A stretch of DNA of 64,000 nt from Octopus sinensis (GCF_006345805.1 NC_043000.1:147498001-147562000), one strand, 5' to 3'. Positions 6,031-59,700 are shown, counted from the stretch's first letter. The notes: generated by a model from the letters alone, not told the origin. A program made the numbers and translations.

Positions 6031-6335
6031 ATCATCATCATCATTGTTCGACCGTGGTCGAGACAATGGAATTTACTATGTTACGCCAGACTTCACGGTC
6101 CATCACAGCATTACGGAGGTCCTGTTGCTGGATGCCTGTATCCCTGGAGATTACATCAGGGTAGGAGAGTGTGCGCCCTCTGGTATTGCGAGTAGATGGC
6201 TTCCAGAAGAGAAGAGTAGAAATTACTTCTTTTTCAGCTCTACAACAATGTCCAGCAAACTGGACTCTCCTACCTTTCACAAGAGATGACACAGGTGGTA
6301 GTTTCCCATATATTTGCATATATTTCCCATATATT
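6031..6335 (-). mobile_element. 3' end of an RTE-group non-LTR retrotransposon with (TGA)n tail
   Basis: ORF end RRVQFAGHCCR...RGRTLSYPDVISRD...MDREVWR resembles the RTE C-terminal region. The stop codon runs into the tgatgatga tail. Confidence 0.75.
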
Positions 6336-7306
6336 AACTGTGTTCCATGGTCCATCCTATTTTCAGCATCTTACACTAATTTTTTGTTAACATGGTAGTA
6401 CTCCAGCATGGCATAGATGTGTAGATGAAACCAGATCAGCATATACCAGAGGCTACTTTGAAATAATAAATTTCTTCTAGCTTTTGTGTATATTTCACTA
6501 TGCCTTTCCTTTGAGCATTTATCCATGCCCTCCCTCTTTCTCTCTCTCACACACACTAACACAAATATCATCATCATCGTTTAACGTCCACTTTCCATGC
6601 TGGCAAGGGCTGGATGGTTTGACCAAGGTCTGGAGAGCCAGTAGCTGGACCAGGCTCCAATCTGATCTGGCAATGTTTCTACAGCTGGATGTCCTTCCTA
6701 ACACCAACCACTTCGAAAGTGTAGTGGGTGCTTTTTATGTGCCACTGGCACGGGATCCAGTCAGGGAGTACTGGCATCGGCCACGTTTGGATGGTGCTTT
6801 TTACATGCCACCAGCACGGGAGCCAGTCAGGTGGCACTGGCCACAGCTACGATATTGGTTTTACTTGACTTAACAGGTCTTCTCAAGCATATCATATCGC
6901 CTGATGCATCAGGGGTACTCTTAACTGGGCTGGATCTCACTTTAGTTGCTGGGTCTTCTCAATCACAGCATATCTCCAAAGGTCTTGGTCTCCTGTCATT
7001 GCCTCTGTGAGGCTTAATGTGTGTGTGTGTGTCATCATCATCATCGTTTAATGTCCGCTTTCCATGCTAGCATGGGCTGGACGATTTGACTAAGGGCTGG
7101 CGAACCAGATGGCTGCACCAGGCCTCAATCTTGATCTGGCAGAGTTTCTACAGCTTGATGCCCTTCCTAATGCCAACCACTCCGAGAGTGTAATGGGTGC
7201 TTTTACGTGCCACTGGCATGGAGTATAGTCAGGCGGTACTGGCAATGACCTTGCTCGAATGTTTTTACACATGCCACCGGCATAAGTGCCAGTAAAGCGA
7301 TAGGCA

Positions 7307-7923: not shown

Positions 7924-9525
7924 TATTAGATTTGAAAACCTGATCAAATTATATCATGATATTACAAGAAAATTATTATAGAAGAAAAATTACCGTCACT
8001 GGAATGTGTGCAGCACTCATGTAGTACACCCAGAATATGGACTGCATATATGAGCCATTATGTATTAAGAGACTGAGGTAAATGATATGTTCCATTACTG
8101 TAACTTTTGTCGTTGTCATGCCAAAATGTTTAAGATGAGGTATTTAGCAACACTGATGGAATAATTCATTGTATTGCTAACCTTATCTTAAAAAAAAAAA
8201 AAGACATTTTGTAAAACATTATTTTAAACAATTTCAACTACTTTTGTAACCGATTGTCTAATGTGCTTGGAACAAGTCTAACACTCATGCAAGGAATAGC
8301 AGCCAAATGTCCATTAAATTGCACTTTACTAGCTTAAAAAAAAAGAAAGATGCTATGGATAATAGTCCACAGCTTGAAAATTTTGAAGACATGAATGATG
8401 GTCATAAGTGGAATACCTTTGAGGGGAAGACCTAGAAAGACGTGGGACAAAGTGGGGAGAAAGCTCTTCAGATGCTGGGCCTAACTGAGGAAATGACAAA
8501 GGACCAGGAGTTGTGTTTTGCTGTGCTTGAGAAGATTCATCAAGCTAAGAAAAATTATGGTCATACATACAGTACGGTGCCATGCAAAATGCACTCATGC
8601 CAGGGCCATGTAAGACACACTTGTGCCAGAGCTGGCGGCACGTAAAAAGTACCCAGCACACTCTGTAAAGTGGTTGGTGTTAGGAAGGGCATCCAGCTGG
8701 AGAAACCACACCAAAACAGACAATTGGAGTCTGGAACCTTCCCCAGCTGGTTAGCTTCAGTCAAACCATCCAACCCATGCCTTCATGGAAAACGGACATT
8801 AAACAATAACGATGATGATGATAGGGCTGTTCACAGGCTAAACAGGACTGGAATAAAGGATTGTGTGTAGTACTTGTTTGCAATATGGAAAAGAGCATTG
8901 TAGCTCTACATGCTATAAAGATTTGTGGGTTTACTCTAAGTTCATAAATGGGTAAATTAAGAACATATTTATGAATTTATCCCAGCCCAAATCTGTGTTG
9001 TTTAACCTGTGAAAACTGCCTTAAGATCAAAGGTGTTCCAGTAATGACCATCATCCATGTCTTCTGAATTTTCAAGCAGGGGAATATTATCCATAACGTC
9101 TTCTTTTTTTTATAAGCTAGTAGGGTGTAATTTGATGGACATTTGGCTGCTATTCCTTACATAAATGTTAGACCTGTCCCAAGCATATTAGGTAGTCAGT
9201 GACAAAAGTGGCTGAAATTGTTTAAAATAATGTTTTACAAATGTTTTCTTTTTTTTAAGATAAGGTTAGCAGTGCAATGAATTCTTCCGTCAGTGTTGCT
9301 AAATAACTCATCCTAAAAATTTTGGCACAACAATGACAAATGTTACAGTAATGGAACATATCATTTACCTCAGTCTCTTAATACATAATGGCTTATATAT
9401 GCAGTCCATATTCTGGGTGTGCTACATGAGTGCTGCACACATTCCAATGAGGGTAATGTTTCTTCTGTAACAATTTTCTTCTTGTAATATAATGGTATAA
9501 TCTGGTCAGGTTTCCAAATCTAATA
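7924..9525. repeat. Diverged ~500 bp inverted duplication (7924-8422 / 9027-9525)
   Basis: For example, cagaatatggactgcatatatgagccattatgtattaagagactgaggtaaatgatatgttccattactgtaac matches its reverse complement at ~9342-9414. Confidence 0.9.
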
Positions 9526-10444: not shown

Positions 10445-10985
10445 TCCACACAGTAACGTGCAACCAAAAGAATACCCTCCATCAGGCATTTGCCATATCC
10501 TGAACGCCTTGCTTCCCTGGGCATGGACACATTGAAGCTCCGACGTCTGGCAGCTGACTTGGCAGACACCCATAAAATTATCAACCATCGCACAAACAAT
10601 AACTCTGAGCACCTCTTCAAACTCCACCCATCTAACACCCGTGGACATATTTACAAAGTAAGAAAACAGCACAGCTCCCATGACTTCAGGAAACATTTTT
10701 TCACGCTGAGAGTTGCTGAAGCATGGAACAAACTGCCGGCATCAGTTGTTAGTTGTCGGAGCACTGCATCCTTCAAAACTTCCATGCTTCCTGAGATTCG
10801 CCAACACTACACTTGATTTTCTCCCCTCCATACACACACAAGCATGTATCTGACTCATACACTGTTCACTTTCCAGACATTTCTACATTACTGCATGTAC
10901 TTTATATGCACTTTCTGACAAGTTGTGGTGCACCTGAGCACTGTATACAATAATTTCATTATTATTATTATTATTATTATTATTT
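10445..10985 (+). mobile_element. 3' end of a CR1-clade LINE with (ATT)n tail
   Basis: PYPERLASLGMDTLKLRRLAADL...TRGH.YK...RKHFFTLRVAEAWNKLP is the typical CR1 ORF2 C-terminus. Confidence 0.85.
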
Positions 10986-24129: not shown

Positions 24130-24923
24130 TTACAGAGTGTACAGTGTGCATTTTTTATAAAGCCACCACTTTTGACACAACTAAAGGGACTTCAGAACCC
24201 CATGTCTCTCCTTGTTCACCAGTCTTTACAGGGTGAGAAACATGAGTGAACAAGGCTTCATCCAGCCCAAGCCCTCACATATTCTCACTACCTCCAGAGT
24301 TCCTCAAGAGCATGCCTCAACATCTTTGCCATCATCATCATCATCTCTCTTTAACTTACTCTCTAACTCACTCTCCTTTCTTTCCCAGCAGGAGTATTCA
24401 TGTATCTACATTACAAAACACCTCTCTGTCTTCTTTCATCTGTAATCTCTCAAATGGCACAAAACTACACCTGCTTTCCATTTGCCATGCCACCACCCTT
24501 CTCAATCAACTTCTCTGACCCATCTCATCTATGAATAGCTGGCTACATTGGATCACTTGTATCTAGCTCACTCTACCCTCCTCTTTTGTACTGCCTGTCA
24601 TCACTCCATGTCAATCTGTCTGCTGGCATACTCACATTTCTATTTTCTCAGACATCCTGAGCCTCTGTCATTACTCTACTGTCTGAGTACCAGACCTCTG
24701 ACATCTCCCTGTCATCTTAGTCATGTTGCCTTGTAAATATATACTTATTTCAAAATACCAGGTACTTGTCGTTTATTTCCCCATCACCATCATGCCTTGT
24801 TCACTCATGTTTCTCACCCTGTAAAGACAGTGGTGAACAAGGAGAGACATGGGGTTCTGAAGTCCCTTTAGCTGTGTCAAAAGTGGTGGCTTTATAAAAA
24901 TATGCACACTGTACACTCTGTAA
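24130..24923. repeat. ~128 bp inverted repeat (24130-24256 / 24794-24923)
   Basis: tacagagtgtacagtgtgca...catgagtgaacaaggc is mirrored with a few mismatches. Confidence 0.9.
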
Positions 24924-38669: not shown

Positions 38670-38714
38670 TATGTATATGTGTGTGTATATATATATATAT
38701 ATATAATATATATA

Positions 38715-38768
<54 letters not shown>

Positions 38769-38870
38769 TATATATGTGTATGTATATATATATATATGTG
38801 TGTATATATATATAGTATATATATATATGTGTGTGTATATATATATGTGTGGTGTATATATATATATATA

Positions 38871-38928
<58 letters not shown>

Positions 38929-38944
38929 GTGTGTGTATATATAT

Positions 38945-38987
<43 letters not shown>

Positions 38988-39509
38988 TATGTATATATAT
39001 ATGTATATGTGTGTGTATATATATATATATATGTGTGTGTGTATGTATATATATATATATATATATATGTGTGTTATGTATATATATATGTGTGTGTGTA
39101 TATATATATATATGTGTGTGTGTATGTATATATGTGTGTATATATATATATATGTGTGTGTATGTATATATATATGTGTGGTATGTATATATATATGTGT
39201 GTATGTATATATATATATGTGTGTATGTATATATATATATGTGTGTATGTATATATATATATATGTGTGTATGTATATATATATATGTGTATGTATATAT
39301 ATATATGTGTATGTATATATATATGTGTGTATGTATATATATATGTGTGTATGTATATATATATATGTGTGTATGTATATATATATGTGTGTATGTATAT
39401 ATATATATGTATGTATATGTATATATATATGTGTGTATGTATATATATATATGTGTGTATGTATATATATATATATATGTGTGTATGTATATATATATAT
39501 ATGTGTGTG

Positions 39510-39552
<43 letters not shown>

Positions 39553-39622
39553 AGGTATATATATATATATGTATGTATATATATATATATGTATATATAT
39601 ATATTTATATGTATGTGTGTGT
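38670..39622. repeat. ~950 bp compound (TA)n/(TG)n microsatellite
   Basis: Directly visible. Confidence 0.97.
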
Positions 39623-46632: not shown

Positions 46633-47103
46633 ACACACACACATATACATACAGCCACTCATAAAAAGCAAAATCATCAAAGTCATATATTAATTGTTTG
46701 TGGGATTTTCCAGTCATAGAAGCTTTGTGCAGTGCATATGTATAAGCAAACCAGTTAGAAACACAGGGTTACATAAATCAGCCACTGAAATCTTTTCTCT
46801 GCATTAATTCAGTACATGTGTGTGAATCAATCATTATATACTAACAGAAGACTATGTCTTCTATTATTTTGCCTGCATTTTCATCATTGCTAAATTTACC
46901 ATCATGCTAAAAGCATCATCAGCAAATTCATCCTCATGCTTTTATCTGGTGGACAATTACATCAAAAAAACATGGTAGTTTTATTTGTAGGTTTGATATG
47001 TCATATTTAATTATATCATTGGTGGTTAGAGTATGTAAATTTGGAATATTTGGAATGTATGTGTGCATTTTTCACTGAAAAACTAAATATTGGTATGGTA
47101 ATG

Positions 47104-47283
47104 ATTTACATGTGACAGATATTTGTTCTCATCTTGTTTGTTGTTAACACAACGTTTCAGCTGATATACTCTCCAGCCTTCATCAGGTGTCTTAGGGAAA
47201 TTTCGAACCTGAGTTCTCATTATTATTATTATTATTCATGTCACTGCCTGGAATCGAACTCGGAATCTTGGGGTTAGTACCCG
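47104..47283 (-). mobile_element. 5'-truncated tRNA-derived SINE: tRNA 3' half, (AAT)n linker, hammerhead-containing tail
   Basis: Minus strand cgggtactaaccccaagattccgaGTTCGATTCCaggcagtgac (B-box at ~47250-47260), then (AAT)n, then the hammerhead motif. Confidence 0.7.
47146..47191 (-). ncRNA. Minimal type I hammerhead ribozyme motif within a tRNA-headed SINE
   Basis: Minus strand: gacac CTGATGA a ggctg-gagagtatat-cagct GAAA cg TT gtgtt. Stem I gacac/gtgtt, stem II ggctg/cagct, palindromic AACGTT stem III, GUU cleavage triplet. Confidence 0.75.
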
Positions 47284-48547
47284 AAGGAGATATTTGGAAA
47301 GTGTTGTATTACTCTTGAATACTATCTTGTGGTATTCACAGAAATCTATGTGATCCAAGAGATGGAGAGATGACAGAGGCTCAGGATGTGTGAGAGAAAA
47401 GAAACAGGAGTATACTATCATCATTCCCATGTTATTGTTTGTTCCTTCTTGAGCCATGCCTGACTCATAAGGGCCGGTTTCGTTGATATATAGGTTCCCC
47501 ACCTGGACAGGATGTCAGTCCATTGCAGGTGAACTGCTTGATGCAGGAGGAAAGAGTGAGAGAAAGTTGTGGAGAAAGAGTCAGCAGAAGTTTACCATTA
47601 CCTTCTGCCGGAGCTGCGTGGAGTTTAGGTGTTTCACTCATAAACACATACATCACCCGGTCTGAGATTCAAACCCACAATCCCTCGATCATGAGTCCAC
47701 TGCTCTAACCACTAGGCCATGTGCCTCCATTCTCATGTTACTCTGTGATGTAAGGTGATGACAAACCATATAGCTGGGAAGGGCAAAGGTAGAGTGAAGT
47801 AGGCACAAATGGTCCAATATGGTCACCTATACTTAGGTTACAAGATGGGTGGGTGGAGTCAAGTGGTGAGTGGTGATGGAGAATGGGATGTTGGGTGAGG
47901 GTCAGACTACGTGTAACAACATTCCACAGTTTCCCTCCATATTTAGAGGTTGGCATTTTATGCAGCATGTGACCATACCAGCACAGTCTTCTTTCTTGCA
48001 CTACATGTGATGCCTCTTATACCCAATTTTTCTCTCAAAACATGTACACTTTCTCATACAAATGATATAGATGTTCAAGGGGTAAGATGCTATCAAAGAC
48101 ATTGCGCAGCACACGCTGTAAAGTGGTTGATGTTAGGAATGGCACCCAACCATAAAAACCATGCCAGATCAGACTGGATGGTGCAGCTCTGGTCAAACCA
48201 CCCAACCTATGCCAGCATGGAAAACAGACGATGAATGATGATGATGATGATATATATCGTTGCTATTATGCAAAAGTGTTGCAAGTTTAAGACGTTGCTT
48301 TTTCAGAAAATGAAAAAGTTTCACCTTTCCATAGCAAAACCGTTTTTGCTACACTTTGAAAATTTTTGATACCTCAGCATCTGAAACAGCTGGAGATACG
48401 ATAGTTTGACCAAAAGAACCGGCTATTGCAAGCAAAAGTGAATATTGAAAAAAATGCATTTGGCCAAATTTAGACATATGACAGTTTAACAATATATATA
48501 TATATATATATATATAAGCGAGAAAGAAGCAACAAGAATGGATAGGT

Positions 48548-48638
48548 TTTTAGTACGATCGTTTCATACAAGGACAGGTTTTATTAAAAGTTGCAAAGAT
48601 TACAGCATATAAACGAGTCCCGTACTCATCAGCTAAAA
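48548..48638 (-). ncRNA. Mirror copy of the same hammerhead motif in the left arm of the palindrome
   Basis: Reverse complement of 49042-49132. Confidence 0.78.
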
Positions 48639-49041
48639 TACATGTAAGTTCTCTAGACATCCTAGTGTTTGAGGCTATACTCATGAAGTAATGTAGATAA
48701 TTAAACAGATTTCTAAAGTTCATTAAAGTTCTTTAAAGATGATGTATAGTCTTATCACAGAATTTTAAAAAAGTTTTGATAGCATCACAGAGAAGGTGAC
48801 CTAATCCATATGAATTTCCATAGATATGATGTGAGTATATAATCCCTCATCATATCTATGGAAATTCATATGGATTAGGTCACCTTCTCTGTGATGCTAT
48901 CAAAACTTTTTTTTAAAATTCTGTGATAAGACTATACATCATCTTAAAGAACTTTAATGAACTTTAGAAATCTGTTTAATTATCTACATTACTTCATGAG
49001 TATAGCCTCAAACACTAGGATGTCTAGAGAACTTACATGTA

Positions 49042-49132
49042 TTTTAGCTGATGAGTACGGGACTCGTTTATATGCTGTAATCTTTGCAACTTTTAATAAA
49101 ACCTGTCCTTGTATGAAACGATCGTACTAAAA
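49042..49132 (+). ncRNA. Type I hammerhead ribozyme motif (Penelope-like-element type)
   Basis: Stem I ttttag/ctaaaa; core CTGATGA (49048-49054); stem II gtacgggac/gtccttgtat with long loop; GAAA (49115-49118); palindromic stem III aCGATCGt; NUH triplet GTA (49124-49126). Confidence 0.8.
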
Positions 49133-49278
49133 ACCTATCCATTCTTGTTGCTTCTTTCTCGCTTATAATCACCCCACATTACTGTATTGTTAAATCAGTA
49201 TAGTTTTTTTGGTGCATCTAAGTTAGGTACCATATTCAAGTAAATTTTTAAATTAACTTGAATCTTTATTGCTATTTG

Positions 49279-49302
<24 letters not shown>

Positions 49303-49309
<7 letters not shown>

Positions 49310-49529
49310 AGCGGGACCAGCCATCTGAATGTGGCTAGGGACAGGGCGGGGTGGTGGGGGTGTTACTGATGCATTTAGCCCCAGGCGACTGTCTATAGTC
49401 GCCTGGGGCTAAATGCATCAGTAACACCCCCACCACCCCGCCCTGTCCCTAGCCACATTCAGATGGCTGGTCCCGCTTATATTACAGAGCAGTTACTGTT
49501 TATACCTCGCTTAGAGATTTATTATTGTT
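49303..49529 (+). mobile_element. Fold-back element 2: 88 bp inverted arms (49303-49390 / 49397-49484), 6 nt loop, ~45 nt tail
   Basis: GC-rich perfect palindrome embedded in (TA)n. Same architecture as element 1. Confidence 0.7.
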
Positions 49530-49557
49530 ATATATATATATATATATAAGAAAAGAA

Positions 49558-49588
<31 letters not shown>

Positions 49589-49987
49589 GGCATTAGGAAA
49601 GGCATCAAGCTGTAGGAAGCATGTCAAATCAGATTGGAACCTGGTGCAGCCCACCCGCTGGCTGACCAGTTCCAGTCGAACTGTTTAACCCATGCCAGCA
49701 TGGAAAGCAGACATTAAATGATGATGATATATATACATACATGCATATGTACAGGCACACACACATGCTTAGCAATACATACCTGTATATATACAAATAT
49801 ACATAACAATTTTAGCATCCATCTTGGCCTGGCCAGTGGGCAAGCAAGTCTTCTACACTGTGCTGCCAGTCAATACTGTTCTTCATCTCCCTAAGGAGTT
49901 TTAGCTCTATCTTTACCACTTCGTTCCTAGTTGTTTTTGGTTTCCATCTTCAACAGGCTCCATATGGGTTTGTGTGTGTATGTGTGA

Positions 49988-50672
49988 ATCATCATCATCA
50001 TCATCATCGTTTAACGTCCGCTTTCCATGCTAGCATGGGTTGGACGGTTCAACTGGGGTCTGGGGAGCCCGAAGGCTGCACCAGGCCAGTCAGATCTGGC
50101 AGTGTTTCTACAGCTGGATGCCCTTCCTAACGCCAACCACTCCGAGAGTGTAGTGGGTAATTTTATGTGCCACCGACACAGGTGCCAGACGAGGCTGGCG
50201 AACGGCCACGCTCGGATGGTGTTTTTTATGTGCCACCGACACAGGTGCCAGACGAGGCTGGCGAACGGCCACACTCGGATGGTGTTTTTTATGTGCCACC
50301 GACACAGGTGCCAGACGAGGCTGGCAGACGGCCACGCTCGGATGGTGTTTTTTATGTGCCACCGACACAGGTGCCAGACGAGGCTGGCGAACGGCCACGA
50401 TCGGATGGTGTTTGTTACGTGCCCACAGCACGGACGCCAGTCGATGCGGTACTGGCTACGGCCATGTTCGGATGGTTTTCTTATGTGCCACCGGCACTGA
50501 TACCACAAAGATACAAATTCCATTGATGTTCATCTATTTTGATTTGGTTTTTGGTTTTCACTTGCCTCAACAGGTCTTCACAAGTGTCACAAGAAGGAAG
50601 GTATGCACAGGTGGACTGACTACGTCCCAGGTAGGGGCCACGGGTTATGGCCTCACTAGTCTTGCCGGGTCT
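49988..50672 (-). mobile_element. RTE 3' end with an expanded 63 bp tandem array (50161-50495)
   Basis: Four near-identical 63 bp units plus about two diverged ones; (GAT)n tail at 49988-50010. Confidence 0.8.
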
Positions 50673-50982
50673 TTAAATGTGAATATTGACATCCCGTCAC
50701 TTTACTTGTCACTGCTGCTACTAAGATGTTTGTGTTCTTTATTGACATTATGATTGCTCACTACATTTAAAGACCTGTCGTATAAAAAAGTCCCTTACTT
50801 GTAAAACAACATTTCAAAAATGTAACTGTTCAGAACATGCTAACATAGAAAATAAATATGCTGTAAAGAATGGATGGAGCCCTCTATCTCTTATTATTTC
50901 ACACACACTGTATCTTTATCTTGCTTCAGTGTATTTTACTAATTGAAATAAAGATAGTATCTAAAGCTAAAGTCAATAATTA

Positions 50983-51381
50983 TACTCTTTTACTTGTTTC
51001 AGTCATTTGACTGCGGCCATGCTGGAGCACCGCCTTTAGTCGATCAAATCGACCCCGGGACTTATTCTTTGTAAGCCCAGTACTTATTCTATCGGTCTCT
51101 TTTGCCGAACCGCTAAGTGACGGGGACGTAAACACACCAGCATCAGTTGTCAAGCAATGCTAGGGGGACAAACACAGACACACAAACCCACACACACACA
51201 CATATATATATATACATATATACGACAGGCTTCTTTCAGTTTCCGTCTACCAAATCCACTCACAAGGCATTGGTCGGCCTGGGGCTATAGCAGAAGACAC
51301 TTGCCCAAGATGCCACGCAGTGGGACTGAACCCGGAACTATGTGGTTGGTTAGCAAGCTACTTACCACACAGCCACTCCTA
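50983..51381 (-). mobile_element. Same tRNA-SINE family
   Basis: Nearly identical to 5002-5441. Confidence 0.85.
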
Positions 51382-51457
51382 TAGCATAAGTTTTCAATTA
51401 CACTGTATCAAAAAATTTATTTTAGTACATTATTTTGTTTGTTTATGTCTGTGTGTG

Positions 51458-51496
<39 letters not shown>

Positions 51497-51724
51497 TTAT
51501 GTGAATTATTTATTTGTATTTTCAATTTCATATGATATTTTTAAACAGCCACTTAAGCAACCAGGAAAGGATATTTGAGGTGTCATTCAACATAAAAAAC
51601 AATGACAGATATCTGAAATAAATACTGAAAACATGCATAGACATGAATTTTGTTAACAAAGAGATTGCATATTTATTTATAACACAAGTATGGGTTTGTG
51701 TGATTAAGAAGTTTAGTTTTCAGT

Positions 51725-53255
51725 TACCGTAAAAACCCATGTAATTTACACACTTTGTTTTCGCAAAAACAAAAATAAACTTTAGCGGGGGCATAAATTA
51801 CATGAGATCTTTTCCAGAATGTTTTCAGAAATTTTTTTGTTGAAAAATGACGTACAATACATAAACATTCGTACAGGAAATAGACTCATTTAATGTCAGA
51901 ATAGGTTTTTACAGAAAAAATATAATAATGAAGTTGACTTTTATTTATGCTGGACAGTATAATGCATACTTTTTCTGTACAAATTTACTTAAACCATTAA
52001 ATGGTTAATTACTTTTTGAAGTTTGACGTTCATGCTGGTAATCACGAGTTTGTACCTATCGCAATGGAGCCCAACAGTTTCCTTAAATAGATCAGTTTTT
52101 CTCTGCTTAAGAAGTCTAGCTTACATTTGCCTCCAAGAAGCTATTCCTCGCTTTCTCCGCGTTAGGGCAATGAAAATCATCACTGCTAACATTGCCGCTA
52201 CCAGTTCTTACTGCATCTAACACCAACGAAAACATCATATAATTCATCCTTGCACATATAAACTCACTAAGTGAATATGACTTAGTGTTCTTAGAGAAAC
52301 CTTCAGTTACCTTATACTATGTTTAATGCCGTTTCACATTCATGTTGAATTATGCAGCAATCTTATGTTCTCTGCATAGAACACTTTTAATGTATGTATT
52401 ACCAGTTCTATTGGTATAGTAGATTTTTGCTATTCTTGTTTATGTCTCCTCACAAGTCGCTTCTTAAATTTTGCACCTCTCTTGTTTAATAAACACTCAG
52501 TTAAACTTGCAAAGCTGTTTATTTTCTCCTTTCGATTTTTAATGTTTATTTTAGTGGGTTACCAAACTATCAGTTTGGTCTCCCAACTAAGACAGTAATG
52601 ACTAATTTTAAAGTTTGTTTGACATTTTATAAGTATAAAAAGGATTAAAATTTCAATACTCTGTATCAAAGGTTCCGACAGGAATAGGCAGAAAATCAGA
52701 GCTTGTGACAAGAAGACACTTTCGACCAATCAGAATTCTGTTTACATAATCAGTTTGATCAGTCACCTTCCTCTGTCAGTTGAGTAAAGTGTCATCCAAG
52801 CTGATGTTTATTGGTAATTAAACTTATTTTGCAACACTTGTGCATACTTATCAGCTTATATTATTATATTATCAACAACTTTTTCTGTGATTGTGATTTG
52901 AGAAGACATATAGAAGTATGCTAAAGATCTGACATAATCTCTTGTGGGCAAGAAATGTGAAATAAAGTTTGTTATAAACAACACAAACACTTCGTAATTT
53001 AATAGCTTTCAATGTGATACCTGTTGAACAGAAATCATTTTTATCTAATGAAAATTTAATAAAATCTTATCATGAGTAAGTGAAATTATACTAAATACAA
53101 CTAAATTGAAAACCTTTGCCCCCTGGCCATATCGCCAATTCTGAAAACTTGGGTGCGAATTTTACATGAGTAGAAGGTTTTTTTTAACAATTTTTATCCT
53201 GAAAATCACCTGCATAAATTACACAGGTGCACAAATTACATGGGTTTTTACGGTA
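51725..53255. mobile_element. Non-autonomous TA-flanked DNA transposon (Tc1/mariner-pogo type), 21 bp perfect TIRs
   Basis: TA-ccgtaaaaacccatgtaattt ... aaattacatgggtttttacgg-TA. It splits an older SINE head. Confidence 0.8.
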
Positions 53256-55830
53256 TGTAGATTTAAGTTCAAACTCACAGTGTAATAGTTTTGCAAGTGT
53301 CTTCTAATAGAATGTTAGGCCAACCAAAGCCTAGTAAGTGAATTTGAGGCAGAAACTGAAAGAATGCCATTGTATGTCTGTGTGTGATTGTGTGCGCATG
53401 CACATTTATATGAGTGAGTTGTATTTCCCTCATGTTTGTGTTTGGCTCACAGATTGTAAACAAGAGCTTCACTAATTTTGGATACAGTCTATAATAGCAC
53501 CCAACAATGTCATTTGCTTGCATTTCACCCTAAAAACCATGTCCTGGCTTCTTCATCATCATCATCATCATCATCGTTTAACGTCCATTTTCCATGCTAG
53601 CATGGGTTGGATGGTTCAACTGGGGTCTGGGAAGCCAGGAGGCTGCGCCAGGCCCAGTCTGATCTGGCAGTGTTTCTACAGCTGGATGCCCTTCCTAACG
53701 CCAACTAATCCATGAGTGTAGTGGGTGCTTTTTATGTGTCACCTGCACAAGTGCCAGACGAGGTTGGCAAATGGCCACGATCGGATGGTGCTTTTTACGT
53801 GCCACCGGCACGGGGGCCAGACGAGGCTGGCAATGGCCACATGTTGCATAATCTTTATAAATGAATGGTCCATGCATTGGATGTTATTTGTTTCCAGTTC
53901 AAAACATGTCTGGGCTGTTTGAAGTTTGATAGACTCAGAAATTTGGAAATGTGGAATTGGCAACCTGAAGGGTATCTGGCATTAGAAAAACCTGTCCCAG
54001 CAAACTCTTATCTGACACATGCAAGTTTAAAAAAGTAGATGTTAAAATTATATATGTACAAGTACATGCACACACAATTTTTTTTATACATATACACGTA
54101 TAATATACTCTGTAAGGTGATTGGTGTTAAGTAGGGCATCCACCATAAAAACCATGCCAAAACAGACTGAAGCCTGGTGCAATCTTTTGGCTTGTCAGCT
54201 CCTGTCAAATTGTCCAGCCCATGCCAGCATGGAAAACGGATGTTAAATGATGATGATGATGATGATGAATATAGATGTAAAGATATATGGCCTAGTGGTT
54301 AGGGGGTTGCACTTACAATTACAAGATTGTGTTTTTGATTCCCAGACAGGCAATATGTTGTGTTCTTGAGCAAAACACTTCATTTCACATTGCTCAACTC
54401 CGCATACCTATAAGTGTGTAATCCTGCAATGGACTGATGTTCCATTGTGAGGGAATGCTAGCTTGTCCAGTGGGGTAGCATCATTTGAAAACTACATGTA
54501 TGTGAGGAAGCATATTGTGACCAGTGGTGTATAACCTCATCTGATAGTCTGGTAAATACAGTAATAACATTTATGTATATTTTATATCTCATGCACTCTT
54601 TTTCCCAAAGTTACTTTCAATATGGAAGGAAGGTGGTAGTAGAGAGCATTATCAAGTAGCTAGAAGAGAAACTGTCAGGTAAACTTTAAGTAGGTAAGAA
54701 GGTGGGAAAACAGAGATTTGCACATATTCTGTGGCATGAGGATCAAAGGCAAAAGGTGTTCAGGATTGAAAGACAGTGTGTTAGAGAGAACAGTGATGTC
54801 ATTGGAGAGAAGTGTATATGAAAATGATAGAGGCACACTTGCCATTGCCATTGATGTCAAGAAAGTAGCTGTTGAATGTGGAGAATGCTTTGGATAAAAA
54901 GGGGTTACCTAAGCTGACCCTACAAAGCAATTTAGTACATGTAGATAGGCAAAGCTCTTGGCATATTCAGGGCTAGTTACTAAAATGCTCGAAACATCTG
55001 GTGAGGCAGGATACATGATAACCACCTGAATAGTTAATCAAGTAATACAGGAACATGTCAACACTATCATTATAAACTGCTGCAAGAGGTAAAGAAATGC
55101 TTTTGAGTGACACTTGGAATGAATCTCTTTATACAAGCAAAATATACAGAACTTTCAGGCATTTAAAGCTATAATATACTCAGAAAGATAAAAGAATACT
55201 TTTAATAACATACCTTCTTGTCTTTCCTGCTCTTTAACCTACACTTAGATATTTCATAAAACTGCACTACCTAGAATAAACAATAGTTGCTCTCAATCAA
55301 CATTTCCTCTAATTTTTTGCTTCTGTATGCAGAAATTTGATTGTGAACAAATTCTGTCTTTCTTTGCAAAGTATGTATACATCCATACAAATAACTATCA
55401 CTTAAATTTTTTCATTTAAAAAAGTTCAGTTTCGTTTTGAAAACCTTGTATGAGCACATTTTCCCCTTTTCCCAGTTGTAAAATATGCTTATATACAAGA
55501 TGGAACACTGCTCTTAATCCCATAGACTTCATTTGCATTACTTTTCATATGTATTTAGATACATACATGTTACTTGAACCATTCATACCCCAGAGAATAT
55601 TTGTAATCTAAACTTACACTAAGAGTACATGTAGGTGTGTTTGAGTGTGAGTGGAAGTATGAGAGAGAGAACATGAGTATATTTATATGGCAGAAATTGT
55701 CATGAATACATACTGCACTGCACTCTCTTTCCCAAAGTTACTTTCAATCGTTTTTTTTTTTTATTTTGTATTAGTACTATCGTACAAATTAGTCTGCTTT
55801 TTAAAAAAATTATCTTTTATTATAGTATCA

Positions 55831-57021
55831 TACAAGGGTTGGCTGAAAAAGTTCATAGGCTGACCAAGATACTCTCATGGAATGTGACTAAATGAGGTTT
55901 ATTTTTCAACATAGTGCTCCTTGTGGTCCACACACTTCTTCCAGTGGTGTTGCAGTGCTTGGATCCCATTGGTGAAGAAACTTTTATCCTGTTGGTCAAA
56001 AAAAGTCATCAATGGCAAATATGACATCATCACTGTGACAGTGGTTCCCAGCCGAGTGTTTTTTCATGTTAGGGAACAGATGATAGTCAGATGGGACCAA
56101 ATCAGGAGAAAAAGGAGGGTGACCAAGGTCTTGGGTGCTAGAGCATTTTCCTGATGAAACAAGACACCTTTTTATCAGTTATCCTGGGAATTTGGTTTTC
56201 ATAACCTTTCATAACTGCCTCAGCAAGTTGGCACAGTCTCCATTAATGGTGTGGCCCTTTTGAAGATAGTCAATAAACACAGTACCTTTTAAATCTCTCA
56301 AAATTGAGGTCATCACTTTCCCTGCAAATGAAATGATTTGAGTTTTCTTTGGAGCAGCTGGTGGGGGGGGGGGTGCTTCCACTTCATGAATTGTCTCTTT
56401 GTTTCTGGTTCAAAGTGATGAACCCAACATTCATCCTAAATTAAAAAACATTAAAAATAAATAGCTGGACCTGCCTCAAACAATATCAGATTTTTCCATG
56501 ATGTGTGCCTAGTGTGCTTTTGATCAGGTGTCAGAAGACTTGCACCCACCAAGCAGAAACCTGTATCATGCCATGTTCATTGTGCAGAATATTCTCAACT
56601 CTCCCACAGGATATGCTAATAGCATTGACCATTTAATTTATAGTCAATCGCTTGTCATCCGTTTGCTTGTGGTGAACATGATCAGTGTTTTACTTAGTGG
56701 TTGCAGGGTGTCCAGACCTTGGGTCATCTTTAAACCCCATTCCTTATGTAGCAACCATGTCATCATGAAAGTGCTTGGGAGCTAAACCCTTTTTCTGCAG
56801 GTAACTTGATAACACCACAATGCCGGATTTTTTTTTCCCATTTTCAAGAGAAATTGCTACTACTTACTTTTAAAGCCTTCTCTGAACAGTCAGATGTCAG
56901 TTTACCTAGAAAGAAACTATTCACTTATTGATAAGAAGATTTGGAGTTAATGCCTGCAAGATTTCTTTTTTAGCATCACTCCTTCATAGTTACCCTATGA
57001 ATTTTTCAGCCCACCTTTGTA
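55831..57021 (-). mobile_element. Mariner DNA transposon, decayed, TA-flanked with ~27 bp TIRs
   Basis: TA-caagggttggctgaaaaagttcatagg ... cctatgaatttttcagcccacctttg-TA. Transposase remnant GIQALQHHWKKCVD on the minus strand. Confidence 0.8.
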
Positions 57022-57220
57022 TCAAAATCATGTCTTTTATATTCTTCTATTTCCTAAAACAAGCTTCATAAATATTAAGCTCAGTTCTTAATACTAAAAG
57101 CAGATGCAAAACAATGATAATGAATCTTGCTATTTTTAAATAACAGTGTTATTAACTAGGCATGGAAAATTTATTACTATAGCTGAATCTTCAACTACGC
57201 ATACAAACACAAACACATTC

Positions 57221-57620
57221 TCTTTACTCTTTTACTTGTTTCAGTCATTTGACTGCGGCCATGCTGGAGCACCGCCTTTAATCGAGCAACTCGACCCCGG
57301 GACTTATTCTTTTGTAAGCCCAGTACTTATTCTATCGGTCTCTTTTGCCGAACCGCTAAGTAACGGGGACAAACACACCAGCATCGGTTGTCAAGCAATG
57401 CTAGGGGGACAAACACAGACACACAAACACACACACGCATATATATACATATATACGATGGGCTTCTTTCAGTTTCCGTCTACCAAATCCACTCACAAGG
57501 CTTTGGTCGGCCCGAGGCTATAGTAGAAGACACTTGCCCAAGGTGCCATGCAGTGGGACTGAACCCAGAACCATGTGGTTGGTAAAGAAGCTACTTACCA
57601 CACAGCCACTCCTGCGCCTA
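57221..57620 (-). mobile_element. Same tRNA-SINE family
   Basis: Nearly identical to 5002-5441. Confidence 0.85.
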
Positions 57621-57624
57621 TTCC

Positions 57625-57658
<34 letters not shown>

Positions 57659-58393
57659 TAATTTATATATTTCTATTTCATTGTTATTTCCGAAATAAGT
57701 AACCCCTTTTACTTTGCAAATAAGTATCCGCATCTACATTAATGTCTTGATTACTATTGTTTTATTACAAGGCCGATATATAACAGTAATTGATAATGTT
57801 ATTTTAATGCTTAGCAACCTTGAGAGAAATAAATATATATCTGTAATTACTCTCTCTTTTACTTGTTTCAGTCATTTGACTGTGGCCATGCTGGAGCACC
57901 ACCTTTATTAATTCAGTTATTTTAAAAAATATTTTATCATTTACTCTACTGGTCTGCATAGAGTCTTTTTGATAGTTGTGGCTTACATTATTTTGGGAAA
58001 ATGACAAAAACTATATATATAAATGGCAAAATGTCTGTCTGTGTGTGTGTGTGTGTGTGTCCTTTATACAAATCCACAATTTTTCAGTTAGAGGGCTCAC
58101 ACTTTCTATGGTCATTCAAAACCGCCCAAGGGTGGTCGTCCACATCTTTACATTTCCCCAGTCACCCTGCAAAGCCATTAAAAAATCAGTAGAAGTGACT
58201 TTTTTGTGAATTTTCTATCCAAAAGCCAATCAAAATGCCTGAAACGTGATACGCCAATTGAATGCCAGCTAGCTGTATGTGATTGGTCGGAGATTTGGAC
58301 AGTATTCGCGTGTATGTGCGCACGCATTCAGCTGTATATGCATGCACTAGCACTATGATCCGGCGTTGCCAGGTCATAGTGCTAGTGTATATG

Positions 58394-58436
<43 letters not shown>

Positions 58437-58636
58437 GAGTGAGTGGACAAACAAAAGAAGGACGCTCAGCCAGTTTATTGGGAGTTACATGTATGGATCA
58501 AAACAGTTTGATTCAAATTCATTGGTACTCTTGAGTTTCAAGTGTGATGCTAGTCATCAGGAAAGGGCTGATGACTAGCATCACGCTTGAAACTCAAGAG
58601 TACCAACAAATTTGAATCAAACTGTTTGGATCCATA
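58437..58636 (-). mobile_element. Fold-back element 3: 69 bp arms (58492-58560 / 58568-58636), 7 nt loop, tail 58437-58491
   Basis: About 4 mismatches between arms. (TA)n on both sides. Hammerhead core sits at the arm start, and the tail contains AATAAA on the minus strand. Confidence 0.7.
58566..58606 (+). ncRNA. Degenerate or truncated hammerhead motif (mirrored on the - strand at ~58522-58560)
   Basis: CTGATGA c tagc-atcac-gctt GAAA ctc-aa-gag TA cc. Core and stem III intact; stem II closing pair mismatched; stem I cut short by the hairpin loop. Confidence 0.55.
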
Positions 58637-59272
58637 TATATATGTATATATATTTATATAAACAAACAATCCTCACATTACAGAATCTTGTGCTTATGGA
58701 AATTGTACAATATGACCACAAGTTTTGTGATACACTCTGTAATTTCACTCTTACAAGAACTTGGGTAACTTTTTATAAATTAAAAAATGTAACCATGACA
58801 TTTCAGTGTATATTTTCTTGGATCACAATAATGAATATCTGTCTATCTCTGTTATATATATATATAAACTTCTTTCTATATATATCTCACTATGCAATTA
58901 CCATTATCAAAAACCAATACCATTCTAACACCATCATTTGAATAACCAACTGGCAATAATATTCTCACCATGATATCAGTGTCTATAGCTACATATGCTT
59001 TATATCAACACAATAGTGTGTGTGGAGTTTTGCTGACTCAAATCAGAGATGCAAGGAGTGAAATGTCCATAAATCTGGTAACCCTTCAACTCTATGTAAC
59101 CATACGGTACTTCCTCCGACCTCCCTCTTTTACTTATTCATCTTATTTCTATTCTTACATCCATAGAAATAGAGTAATTTCTTGCTCTTTCAAAGCAATT
59201 CTCTCCTGATGTTATTATTTTTGCTACATATTTGTTGATTGCCACCGCTGGTGGATATATCTATAATTTAAG

Positions 59273-59700
59273 ATGTCTGGAAAGAAGATACCAAGTGGAA
59301 CTGAAGGCAGTAGTGTGTTAAAGAAATGCAAAAGAATTACATTGATATTAAACTTGAGGTTTTAAAAAGGCTCAATGCTGGGGAGAAAATCAGCCCCAAA
59401 ACATCCAGAATCACCTTAGCAGTGTACAAAACATCCAGAATAATCTTAGCCATTGTCTCCAAAGTGTAGTCAGGAGGGTTATAAAAGCTGAGAAAATCTT
59501 TGTGGACATCTTGGTTTTTCAGAAACATAAAGACCATAACTGATTCTTGTTCCAGGCCAAAGCAATCACATATAACATCAATAAACATGGAATCTTCAAC
59601 TATTTTTCTGATCTCATGCTGGGTGTTACAAGCATATTCCTCCAGGATTTCATTTTGTATGGTTTCAGATAGGAAATTAACTCATCGTTTAAGCTGCTGA
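59273..59700. pseudogene. Adjacent transposase fragments: Tigger/pogo HTH (+, ~59273-59395) and hAT/ZMYM1-like (-, ~59430-59700)
   Basis: Plus strand KRIT/IDIKLEVLKRLNAGEK (frameshifted). Minus strand DVHKDFLSFYNPPDYTLETMAKIILDVL resembles the hAT segment EEFLGF...DTTGETIA. Confidence 0.5.

Follow-up and report, generated by a model that had tools for sequence, protein, structure and literature searches.

Three hairpins in TA repeats of an Octopus sinensis chromosome segment as probable 5'-truncated insertions of Penelope-like elements

Three close hairpins are embedded in (TA)n repeats within a stretch of 64,000 nucleotides (nt) of Octopus sinensis DNA (GCF_006345805.1 NC_043000.1:147498001-147562000), referred to below as the window. 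They are named E1 (48513-49278), E2 (49303-49528) and E3 (58437-58634), and it is very likely that they are separate inserts in TA repeats, namely 5'-truncated, dead insertions of three families of Penelope-like elements (PLEs). Membership among PLEs rests on anatomy, because no link to a gene for reverse transcriptase (RT) or GIY-YIG nuclease was obtained. Most likely the three units are ordinary debris of an insertion pattern that has been described before, and no new system. The original prediction for this DNA had proposed one family of fold-back elements forming a distinct, PLE-related hairpin retro-system. Its PLE link is upheld on insertion anatomy. The idea of one family or of a separate system is not supported, given that the units are unrelated in sequence, the E1 and E2 families are non-palindromic, the junctions vary and the architecture is the published default of PLEs.

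Architecture of the three hairpins

The whole window was scanned for hairpins with a loop of 3-30 nt and a score of at least 14 after masking of simple repeats, and E1, E2 and E3 were the sole close hairpins found. Their ungapped scores are 82, 65 and 53, compared with a best score of 13 in a control of 10 block shuffles. All six unit ends touch a run of at least five TA units, one such run being common to E1 and E2, and the predicted priming in (TA)n is right on this count; the share of the window lying within 10 nt of such a run is 3.2%. A head-to-head inverted, 5'-truncated copy is present at the 5' end in each unit (3/3), with the orientation fixed by hammerhead and tail in E1 and E3, and a tail occurs on one end only in all of them (111, 44 and 57 nt). 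E3 lies on the minus strand, since its tail is on the left side. The longest identical match among E1, E2 and E3 is 11 letters at most, and no further copies of any of them were found within the window. One architecture in three units of unrelated sequence, as originally proposed, is thus borne out by the measurements of arms, loops, tails and (TA)n runs (Table 1).

The arms of E1 show no substitutions and 3 gap letters, which lie in homopolymer runs, and the homopolymer lengths of its inverted arm match variant forms found in all four public runs considered below. The arms of E2 are complementary at 88/88 positions and those of E3 differ at 4/67. The tail boundaries of E1 and E2 both carry the 8-letter motif CGCTTATA, which may be a mild hint of related machinery. 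Since a single (TA) run adjoins both E1 and E2, the later of the two likely landed in the run that the earlier had left behind; if so, nesting of this type would turn TA runs into self-renewing hot spots.

Table 1. Positions of the hairpin components and flanking runs, counted from the first letter of the window
Feature	Position	Strand	Remark
(TA)n target run left of E1	48492..48516	.	last 4 nt common with arm end
E1 inverted arm, tail-less copy	48513..48831	-	319 nt
Mirror copy of E1 hammerhead in inverted arm	48548..48638	-	core at 48632
E1 loop	48832..48847	+	16 nt; family's own sequence at 5' truncation point of direct copy
E1 direct arm	48848..49167	+	3' end of high-copy family; 49167 is the family-wide terminus
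E1 type I hammerhead motif	49042..49132	+	core 49048-49054 and 49115-49118
E1 one-sided tail	49168..49278	+	111 nt; part of family, covered in 4/4 runs
(TA)n run common to E1 and E2	49279..49304	.
E2 inverted arm	49303..49390	-	88 nt; 49318-49388 matches second high-copy family
E2 loop	49391..49396	+	6 nt
E2 direct arm	49397..49484	+	no hammerhead motif
E2 one-sided tail	49485..49528	+	44 nt
(TA)n run right of E2	49529..49548	.
(TA)n run left of E3	58398..58436	.
E3 one-sided tail	58437..58493	-	57 nt; AATAAA hexamer on minus strand
E3 direct arm	58494..58560	-	67 nt; begins exactly at first hammerhead core base
E3 loop	58561..58567	.	7 nt
E3 inverted arm	58568..58634	+	67 nt; better-kept hammerhead core
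(TA)n run right of E3	58634..58643	.

Two side observations concern the TA-rich setting. Directly left of E3, the segment 58011-58390 has a TA-rich start, a (TG)n run and a 3' imperfect hairpin (58342-58390, 82% over 49 nt) that ends in CTAGT-like letters, and its terminal TA run harbours E3; we take this segment to be a non-autonomous element of Helitron type from its look. Elsewhere, a (TA)/(TG) microsatellite of 929 nt (38686-39614, 465 units at 84%) was found to hold no hairpin element.

Family copies in public contigs and hammerhead motifs

E1 sequence is present in 20 of the 24 listed runs (10 studies, 8 organisms), 15 of which share at least half of its sequence words, and no run on record as RNA is found among the listed runs with E1 sequence. 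For comparison with public data we used the stretch 48790-49440 (651 bases). From E1 it takes in the loop, the direct arm and the tail, and from E2 the inverted arm, the loop and 44 nt of the direct arm, E3 and the E2 tail being outside it. It was compared with the contig sets X1, X3, X8 and X9 (four runs, three organisms, four studies), of which X3 and X9 come from another organism than X1 and X8. In X1, 3514 contigs fall on this stretch, and the summed depth of the E1 family, which in contig sets such as these four is not a copy number, increases from 6e4 at 48834-48855 to 1.0-1.5e6 at 48988-49163. Single junction contigs in the same run have depths of 11-33. On this comparison the E1 family is very abundant and becomes sparser in the 5' direction. 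In X9 the depth is high downstream of about 49095, but as a contig depth it is given no weight here.

Contigs of three of the four runs (X3, X8 and X9, from three studies) match the E1 family from 48830, which gives a 2-nt overlap with the inverted arm, and continue upstream for 21-50 nt with other letters; therefore the family is not a palindrome, and the loop is its own sequence. At the other end, (TA)n follows directly after 49167, where the inverted arm ends, in 19 X1 and 2 X9 contigs, so that the tail-less end, seen in 21 contigs of two runs, is a rule of the family. Both arms of E1 have the same letter at 14/14 variable family positions checked, and letters that are in the minority in X1 at 48934, 49012 and 49082 are common to both. 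Separately, E1-family contigs covering 49165-49264 extend beyond 49264 by 40 and 145 letters in X3 and X9, and longer tails or downstream sequence thus exist in other copies of the family.

The E2 family matches 49318-49388 and runs on past 49388 in X3, X8 and X9, by up to 255 letters. Two X1 contigs match from 49391, and their preceding letters could, by eye, form a natural stem of 6 base pairs (bp) around the E2 loop. Six other E2-family joints, at six different positions and with a depth of 11-33 each, occur in X1 and are read as fold-backs at other loci with spacers of about 19-49 nt; no E1-family joint is among those listed. The E1 and E2 families are non-palindromic, and the junctions of the E2 family differ in position; it follows that the hairpin does not replicate as a unit but arises afresh at insertion. 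Additionally, an 18-nt E1 motif found 13 loci in metagenome contigs, all of them chance matches with at most 22 aligned letters, and there were no matches of an E1 motif in viral contigs or of an E2 motif in prokaryote genomes.

In E1 the type I hammerhead motif is complete, comprising stem I of 6 bp, stem II of 7 bp with a long extension and a palindromic stem III of 8 nt. Its core boxes are 59 nt apart, the cut is predicted after 49126, and 35 nt separate the end of the motif from the tail boundary. No motif with stem I of at least 4 bp was obtained in 40 shuffles. Pairing in stem III is kept in family variants, where 49123 C>T gives a G-U pair, and one X3 loose end carries, by eye, a two-sided change in this stem. 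The self-duplex of stem III was calculated at -10 kcal/mol. In the E1 monomer the ribozyme fold (stems I and II, -10.0) is less stable than an alternative (-14.3), in agreement with the PLE motifs of PMC4209133, which are dimer-dependent and weakly active. The full E1 transcript is predicted to fold at -569 kcal/mol, and 11/11 core positions examined in it are unpaired with a probability of at most 0.003.

The inverted arm of E3 has a core with both boxes present, stem I of 2 bp, stem II of 3 bp and stem III of 4 bp. Its tail-bearing arm fails the hammerhead descriptor, the 5' strand of stem I being absent and stem II weakened. The core boxes lie about 30 nt from the tail boundary and the junction removes stem I. 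The E3 core alone is not significant, because weak motifs arise by chance at 0.18 (stem I of at least 2 bp) to 0.8 (no stem I required) per shuffled window. The original prediction that two units carry hammerhead cores is matched by the complete motif of E1 and by a truncated core in E3 that carries no significance by itself. A scan of the window against Rfam did not recover any hammerhead among 43 matches at E up to 1; both Rfam and standard descriptors miss the E1 motif because the 59 nt between its boxes are too long. As Rfam misses it, the result suggests that hammerheads of this kind, with a 59-nt stem II region, are undercounted. Rfam microRNA matches on the hairpins were rejected as generic hairpin matches below the gathering scores.

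A third hammerhead, overlooked in the original prediction, is of the minimal type I and is single in the window. Its core is at 47186, within 47090-47300 on the minus strand, with stem I of 5 bp, stem II of 6 bp and a palindromic stem III of 4 nt. It lies at the end of an apparent repeat of short interspersed element (SINE) type that has no fold-back and no TA flank, and a SINE with a Penelope-type 3' end would deserve attention.

Mode of insertion and alternative explanations

Following the published mechanism of PLEs, the GIY-YIG nuclease would nick a (TA)n run and RT would copy the element RNA from an outer, tail-including start. Copying would stop early, 140-450 nt in, which for the E1 family is seen as the coverage gradient. 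The new complementary DNA (cDNA) end would then snap back where a weak natural stem-loop lets a few bases pair, and would be extended on itself, so that the loop would be element sequence and both arms would come from one molecule. The second strand would stop at the TATA-like tail boundary, an end point observed as the family-wide terminus, with a cause that we can only propose; this boundary would pair with the other (TA)n end, and repair would make the insert double-stranded. The hammerhead would merely be carried along owing to its position 30-35 nt upstream of the tail boundary, and the hairpin would be an end product that does not spread as such. A non-autonomous RNA may have been mobilised in trans, but this need not be assumed, as autonomous copies truncated at the 5' end would leave stubs of the same kind.

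The original prediction had also assumed ribozyme-processed RNA as the template. Both arms of E1 continue through the predicted cut site, which implies an uncut template; ribozyme mutants of PAc, the Anolis Poseidon element and the one PLE to have been reconstituted in vitro, inserted normally (PMC11167929); and the core is buried in the predicted E1 transcript. For these reasons ribozyme processing is not needed, and this part of the proposal is not supported. Its fold-back copying is probably right, with snap-back as our suggested form of it and the stems weak; within the whole PLE explanation, snap-back takes a little over half of the weight.

Several observations count against this interpretation. 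The snap-back stem of E1 is weak (4 bp, -1.3 kcal/mol) and 2 nt off the observed register, and for E2 no such stem forms from the letters of the window. Arm identity could also be due to a single active master copy or to homogenisation at a later time. E2 has no hammerhead motif in either arm, its outer 15 nt barely match the E2 family, and each of the other E2-family joints is a single contig with 20-36 letters on the short side. Among the pieces listed (32/3760), no contig spans the E1 or the E2 loop of this locus with 31 letters on both sides. The tails of E1-E3, at 44-111 nt, exceed the 30-40 nt given as a rule for PLEs (PMC8557442).

The enzyme side likewise weighs against it. The stubs E1-E3 contain no open reading frame (ORF) for RT or GIY-YIG, Pfam matched none of six queries (4 of the 67 window frames described below and two E1 peptides), and the upstream extensions of the E1 family, just 21-50 nt, reach no enzyme. 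An open frame of 32 residues at the 5' end of E1 was considered as the end of an ORF and rejected as unproven. For this frame there was 1 match among 1.84 billion proteins, a repetitive protein without real likeness, 0/17 candidates scored in a second protein search, the best Atlas score was 0.80 and Pfam gave none. The upstream letters of X8 and X9 differ by eye, those of X9 placing a stop in the frame.

As the snap-back stems are weak, two other routes to the inversion remain, which together we consider distinctly less probable than the PLE origin as such, though a serious alternative; they are variants within the PLE interpretation and not additions to it. Two primings could be joined head to head, one on each nicked strand of the target, with one beginning at the tail-including and the other at the tail-less RT start, or an antisense template could prime itself, as proposed in PMC3846280. 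The former agrees with PAc, which cuts and extends both strands, is a predicted dimer and has two RT starts bounding the tail (PMC11167929), so that the tail-less end would be directly explained. Furthermore, the E3 loop may belong to the inverted copy, giving 2 bp of stem I there. However, cDNAs made independently should not end a mere 6-16 nt apart or have all variant letters in common as the E1 arms do, and the spacers of the six other E2-family joints are short as well.

The same architecture three times in 10 kb, the great abundance of the families and the failure to find a coding link would also suit the hairpin system of the original prediction, in which a non-autonomous element spreads as a palindrome with its RNA processed by the hammerhead. 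We hold this to be very improbable, and for E1 and E2 it is largely refuted: the family contigs are non-palindromic and extend beyond the loop, the junctions vary, the predicted hairpin transcript buries the ribozyme core, both E1 arms cross the cut site, E2 is without ribozyme and E3 without stem I. Fold-back artefacts of reads or assembly could be suspected from the E1 arms, which differ solely by homopolymer gaps, from the identical E2 arms, from exact junctions that are not spanned among the listed contigs and from the known trouble that complex PLE insertions give to assemblies (PMC8557442). Yet an artefact would copy tail and flank, whereas the inverted arms omit the tail and stop at a terminus found in other runs; the E3 arms are not identical, and other E2-family fold-back joints occur in public contigs. 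Of all the explanations weighed here we give this one the least credence. Hardly more credible is an origin at the DNA level, either as a miniature inverted-repeat transposable element (MITE) or foldback transposon in TA sites or as an inverted duplication made by repair of breaks at TA repeats. Long inverted arms and TA flanks agree with it, and remnants of TA-target DNA transposons appear, by eye, to be common in the window. However, a tail on one side, a 5' coverage gradient, a 3' hammerhead and junctions that vary are characteristic of retroelements, a duplication made by repair would not stop at a family-wide terminus, and E1-E3 do not show the terminal inverted repeats at both ends and fixed palindromic consensus of MITEs and foldback elements.

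Further observations and relation to known Penelope-like elements

The public contigs differ in their share of A>G among the listed changes, which is 13/23 in X3 and X9 as against 2/16 in X1 and X8 (Fisher p 0.008, with non-independent sites). The A>G sites include 49046 in hammerhead stem I and 49118 at core position 15.1, and five of them show no G in X1 at depths of 4e5-1e6. A 5'-neighbour T is found at 4/7 A>G sites against a background of 50/134, which is not significant. According to PMC5625713, the proportion of loci with the capacity for long perfect double-stranded RNA (dsRNA) is unusually high in octopus, and Penelope is heavily edited in lizard; fold-back palindromes could help explain the former. 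A more far-reaching idea, which we regard as improbable, is that Penelope fold-back stubs are a major source of octopus long dsRNA and that E1-family RNA is edited from adenosine to inosine (A-to-I), including at 49046 and 49118, with ADAR serving as an off-switch of the ribozyme. Against editing, X3 and X9 come from another organism than X1 and X8, with no DNA run of the same organism in the comparison, and neither of the two is recorded as RNA. The changes are also confined to the sense strand, while in an edited hairpin RNA one would expect T>C alongside A>G. The A>G excess is thus a lead only. A limited literature search found no publication combining hammerhead ribozyme, A-to-I editing, Penelope and ADAR.

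The window as a whole is AT-rich and repeat-rich eukaryote DNA with a G+C fraction of 0.25-0.43 per 2 kb, and its 67 stop-to-stop frames of at least 90 residues are mostly repeats and microsatellites. Its short interspersed repeats presumably are octopus SINEs, which they resemble. The frames 6041-6370 and 10457-10816, which we take to read like C-terminal ends of proteins of long interspersed elements, have no Pfam match. Similarly, 55835-57020 and 59250-59700 are presumably decayed remnants of mariner-type or pogo-type transposons, and the sole frame scanned within them (59340-59681) has no Pfam match. An older inverted pair, 7953-8422 and 9027-9493, is about 470 nt long, 84-90% identical and 604 nt apart; its spacer holds a SINE-like repeat and there are no TA runs at its ends. 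The inverted pairs 24130-24256 / 24794-24923 and 51725-51747 / 53233-53255 may be terminal repeats of DNA transposon derivatives.

As a kind, E1-E3 matter little, being the described footprint of PLE insertion. PMC8557442 names the origin of the inverted structures of PLEs as an open task, and the very abundant E1 and E2 families, whose junctions are short and variable, lend themselves well to testing snap-back against two-primer formation across the genome. The three families are probably uncatalogued or merely unexamined, and they may already stand in Dfam or Repbase. PMC13282606 reports 31 recently active Penelope-like families in Octopus vulgaris, with no mention of hammerheads in those parts of its main text that were available, and 235 hammerheads were counted in giant squid (PMC6962438).

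The closest comparison is with endonuclease-positive PLEs. Their insertions are described in PMC8557442 as 5'-truncated, with an inverted 5'-truncated copy at the 5' end and a tail at one end; they carry hammerheads close to the 3' end, within the terminal repeat, and are targeted to (TA)n. E1-E3 agree in the head-to-head junction with a short spacer, the one-sided tail, the 5' truncation and the (TA)n targets, which hide target-site duplications. Dispersed 5'-truncated copies are seen for E1 (depth gradient and upstream continuation) and for E2 (continuation and six joints). The 3' hammerhead is found in E1 and absent in E2, and E3 has the core boxes with stems II and III, stem I being lost at the junction; all three stubs are too short to hold any ORF. 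Naiad-type PLEs are also without hammerhead (PMC8557442), as is E2, which is therefore filed by architecture only; in the octopus Naiad consensus 3' ends available there, no resemblance to E1-E3 was seen. Head-to-head palindromic PLE junctions have been reported before and read as self-priming (PMC3846280).

Within the Hydra clade, which includes Hydra-1_Obim and Penelope-13_HM, the supplement of PMC8557442 gives a (TA)n preference in 26/27 families, and E1-E3 have the same preference; an Octopus family is also listed there. The Repbase entry Penelope-13_HM has an attached inverted, 5'-truncated copy with a hammerhead on each strand. In five consensus ends of the clade compared by eye, the hammerhead lies about 20-40 nt upstream of a TATA-like site, as in E1 and E3, and the extra bases flanking stem II and a 4-bp stem III also occur, by eye, in the E3 core. 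However, the Hydra-1_Obim hammerhead differs from those of E1 and E3, and short E1-E3 motifs were not found in the available part of that supplement, whose line-wrapped sequences may conceal a match.

The type I hammerheads described in minimal and variant forms for metazoan PLEs (PMC4209133) resemble that of E1 in type, in the palindromic stem III suited to dimers and in the large stem II, and pairs 100-700 bp apart on opposite strands are noted there; E1 differs in the 59 nt that separate its core boxes, a distance beyond the range of standard descriptors. The non-LTR (long terminal repeat) retrozymes (PMC7229834; bioRxiv 10.64898/2026.07.22.740005) are non-coding and PLE-linked, as E1-E3 are taken to be, and carry a type I hammerhead, as does E1, but they are head-to-tail tandem repeats, whereas E1-E3 are head-to-head pairs with no tandem array at their loci. 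PAc (PMC11167929), for which cutting of AT-rich DNA on both strands is described, has two RT starts bounding the tail, an AT-rich target and an uncut RNA template, as we propose for E1-E3; its hammerhead overlaps the ORF start, and the ATG in the E1 core opens just 8 codons. With no enzyme gene found in the searches above and no hammerhead in E2, E1-E3 nevertheless behave like a PLE insertion in every structural respect tested.

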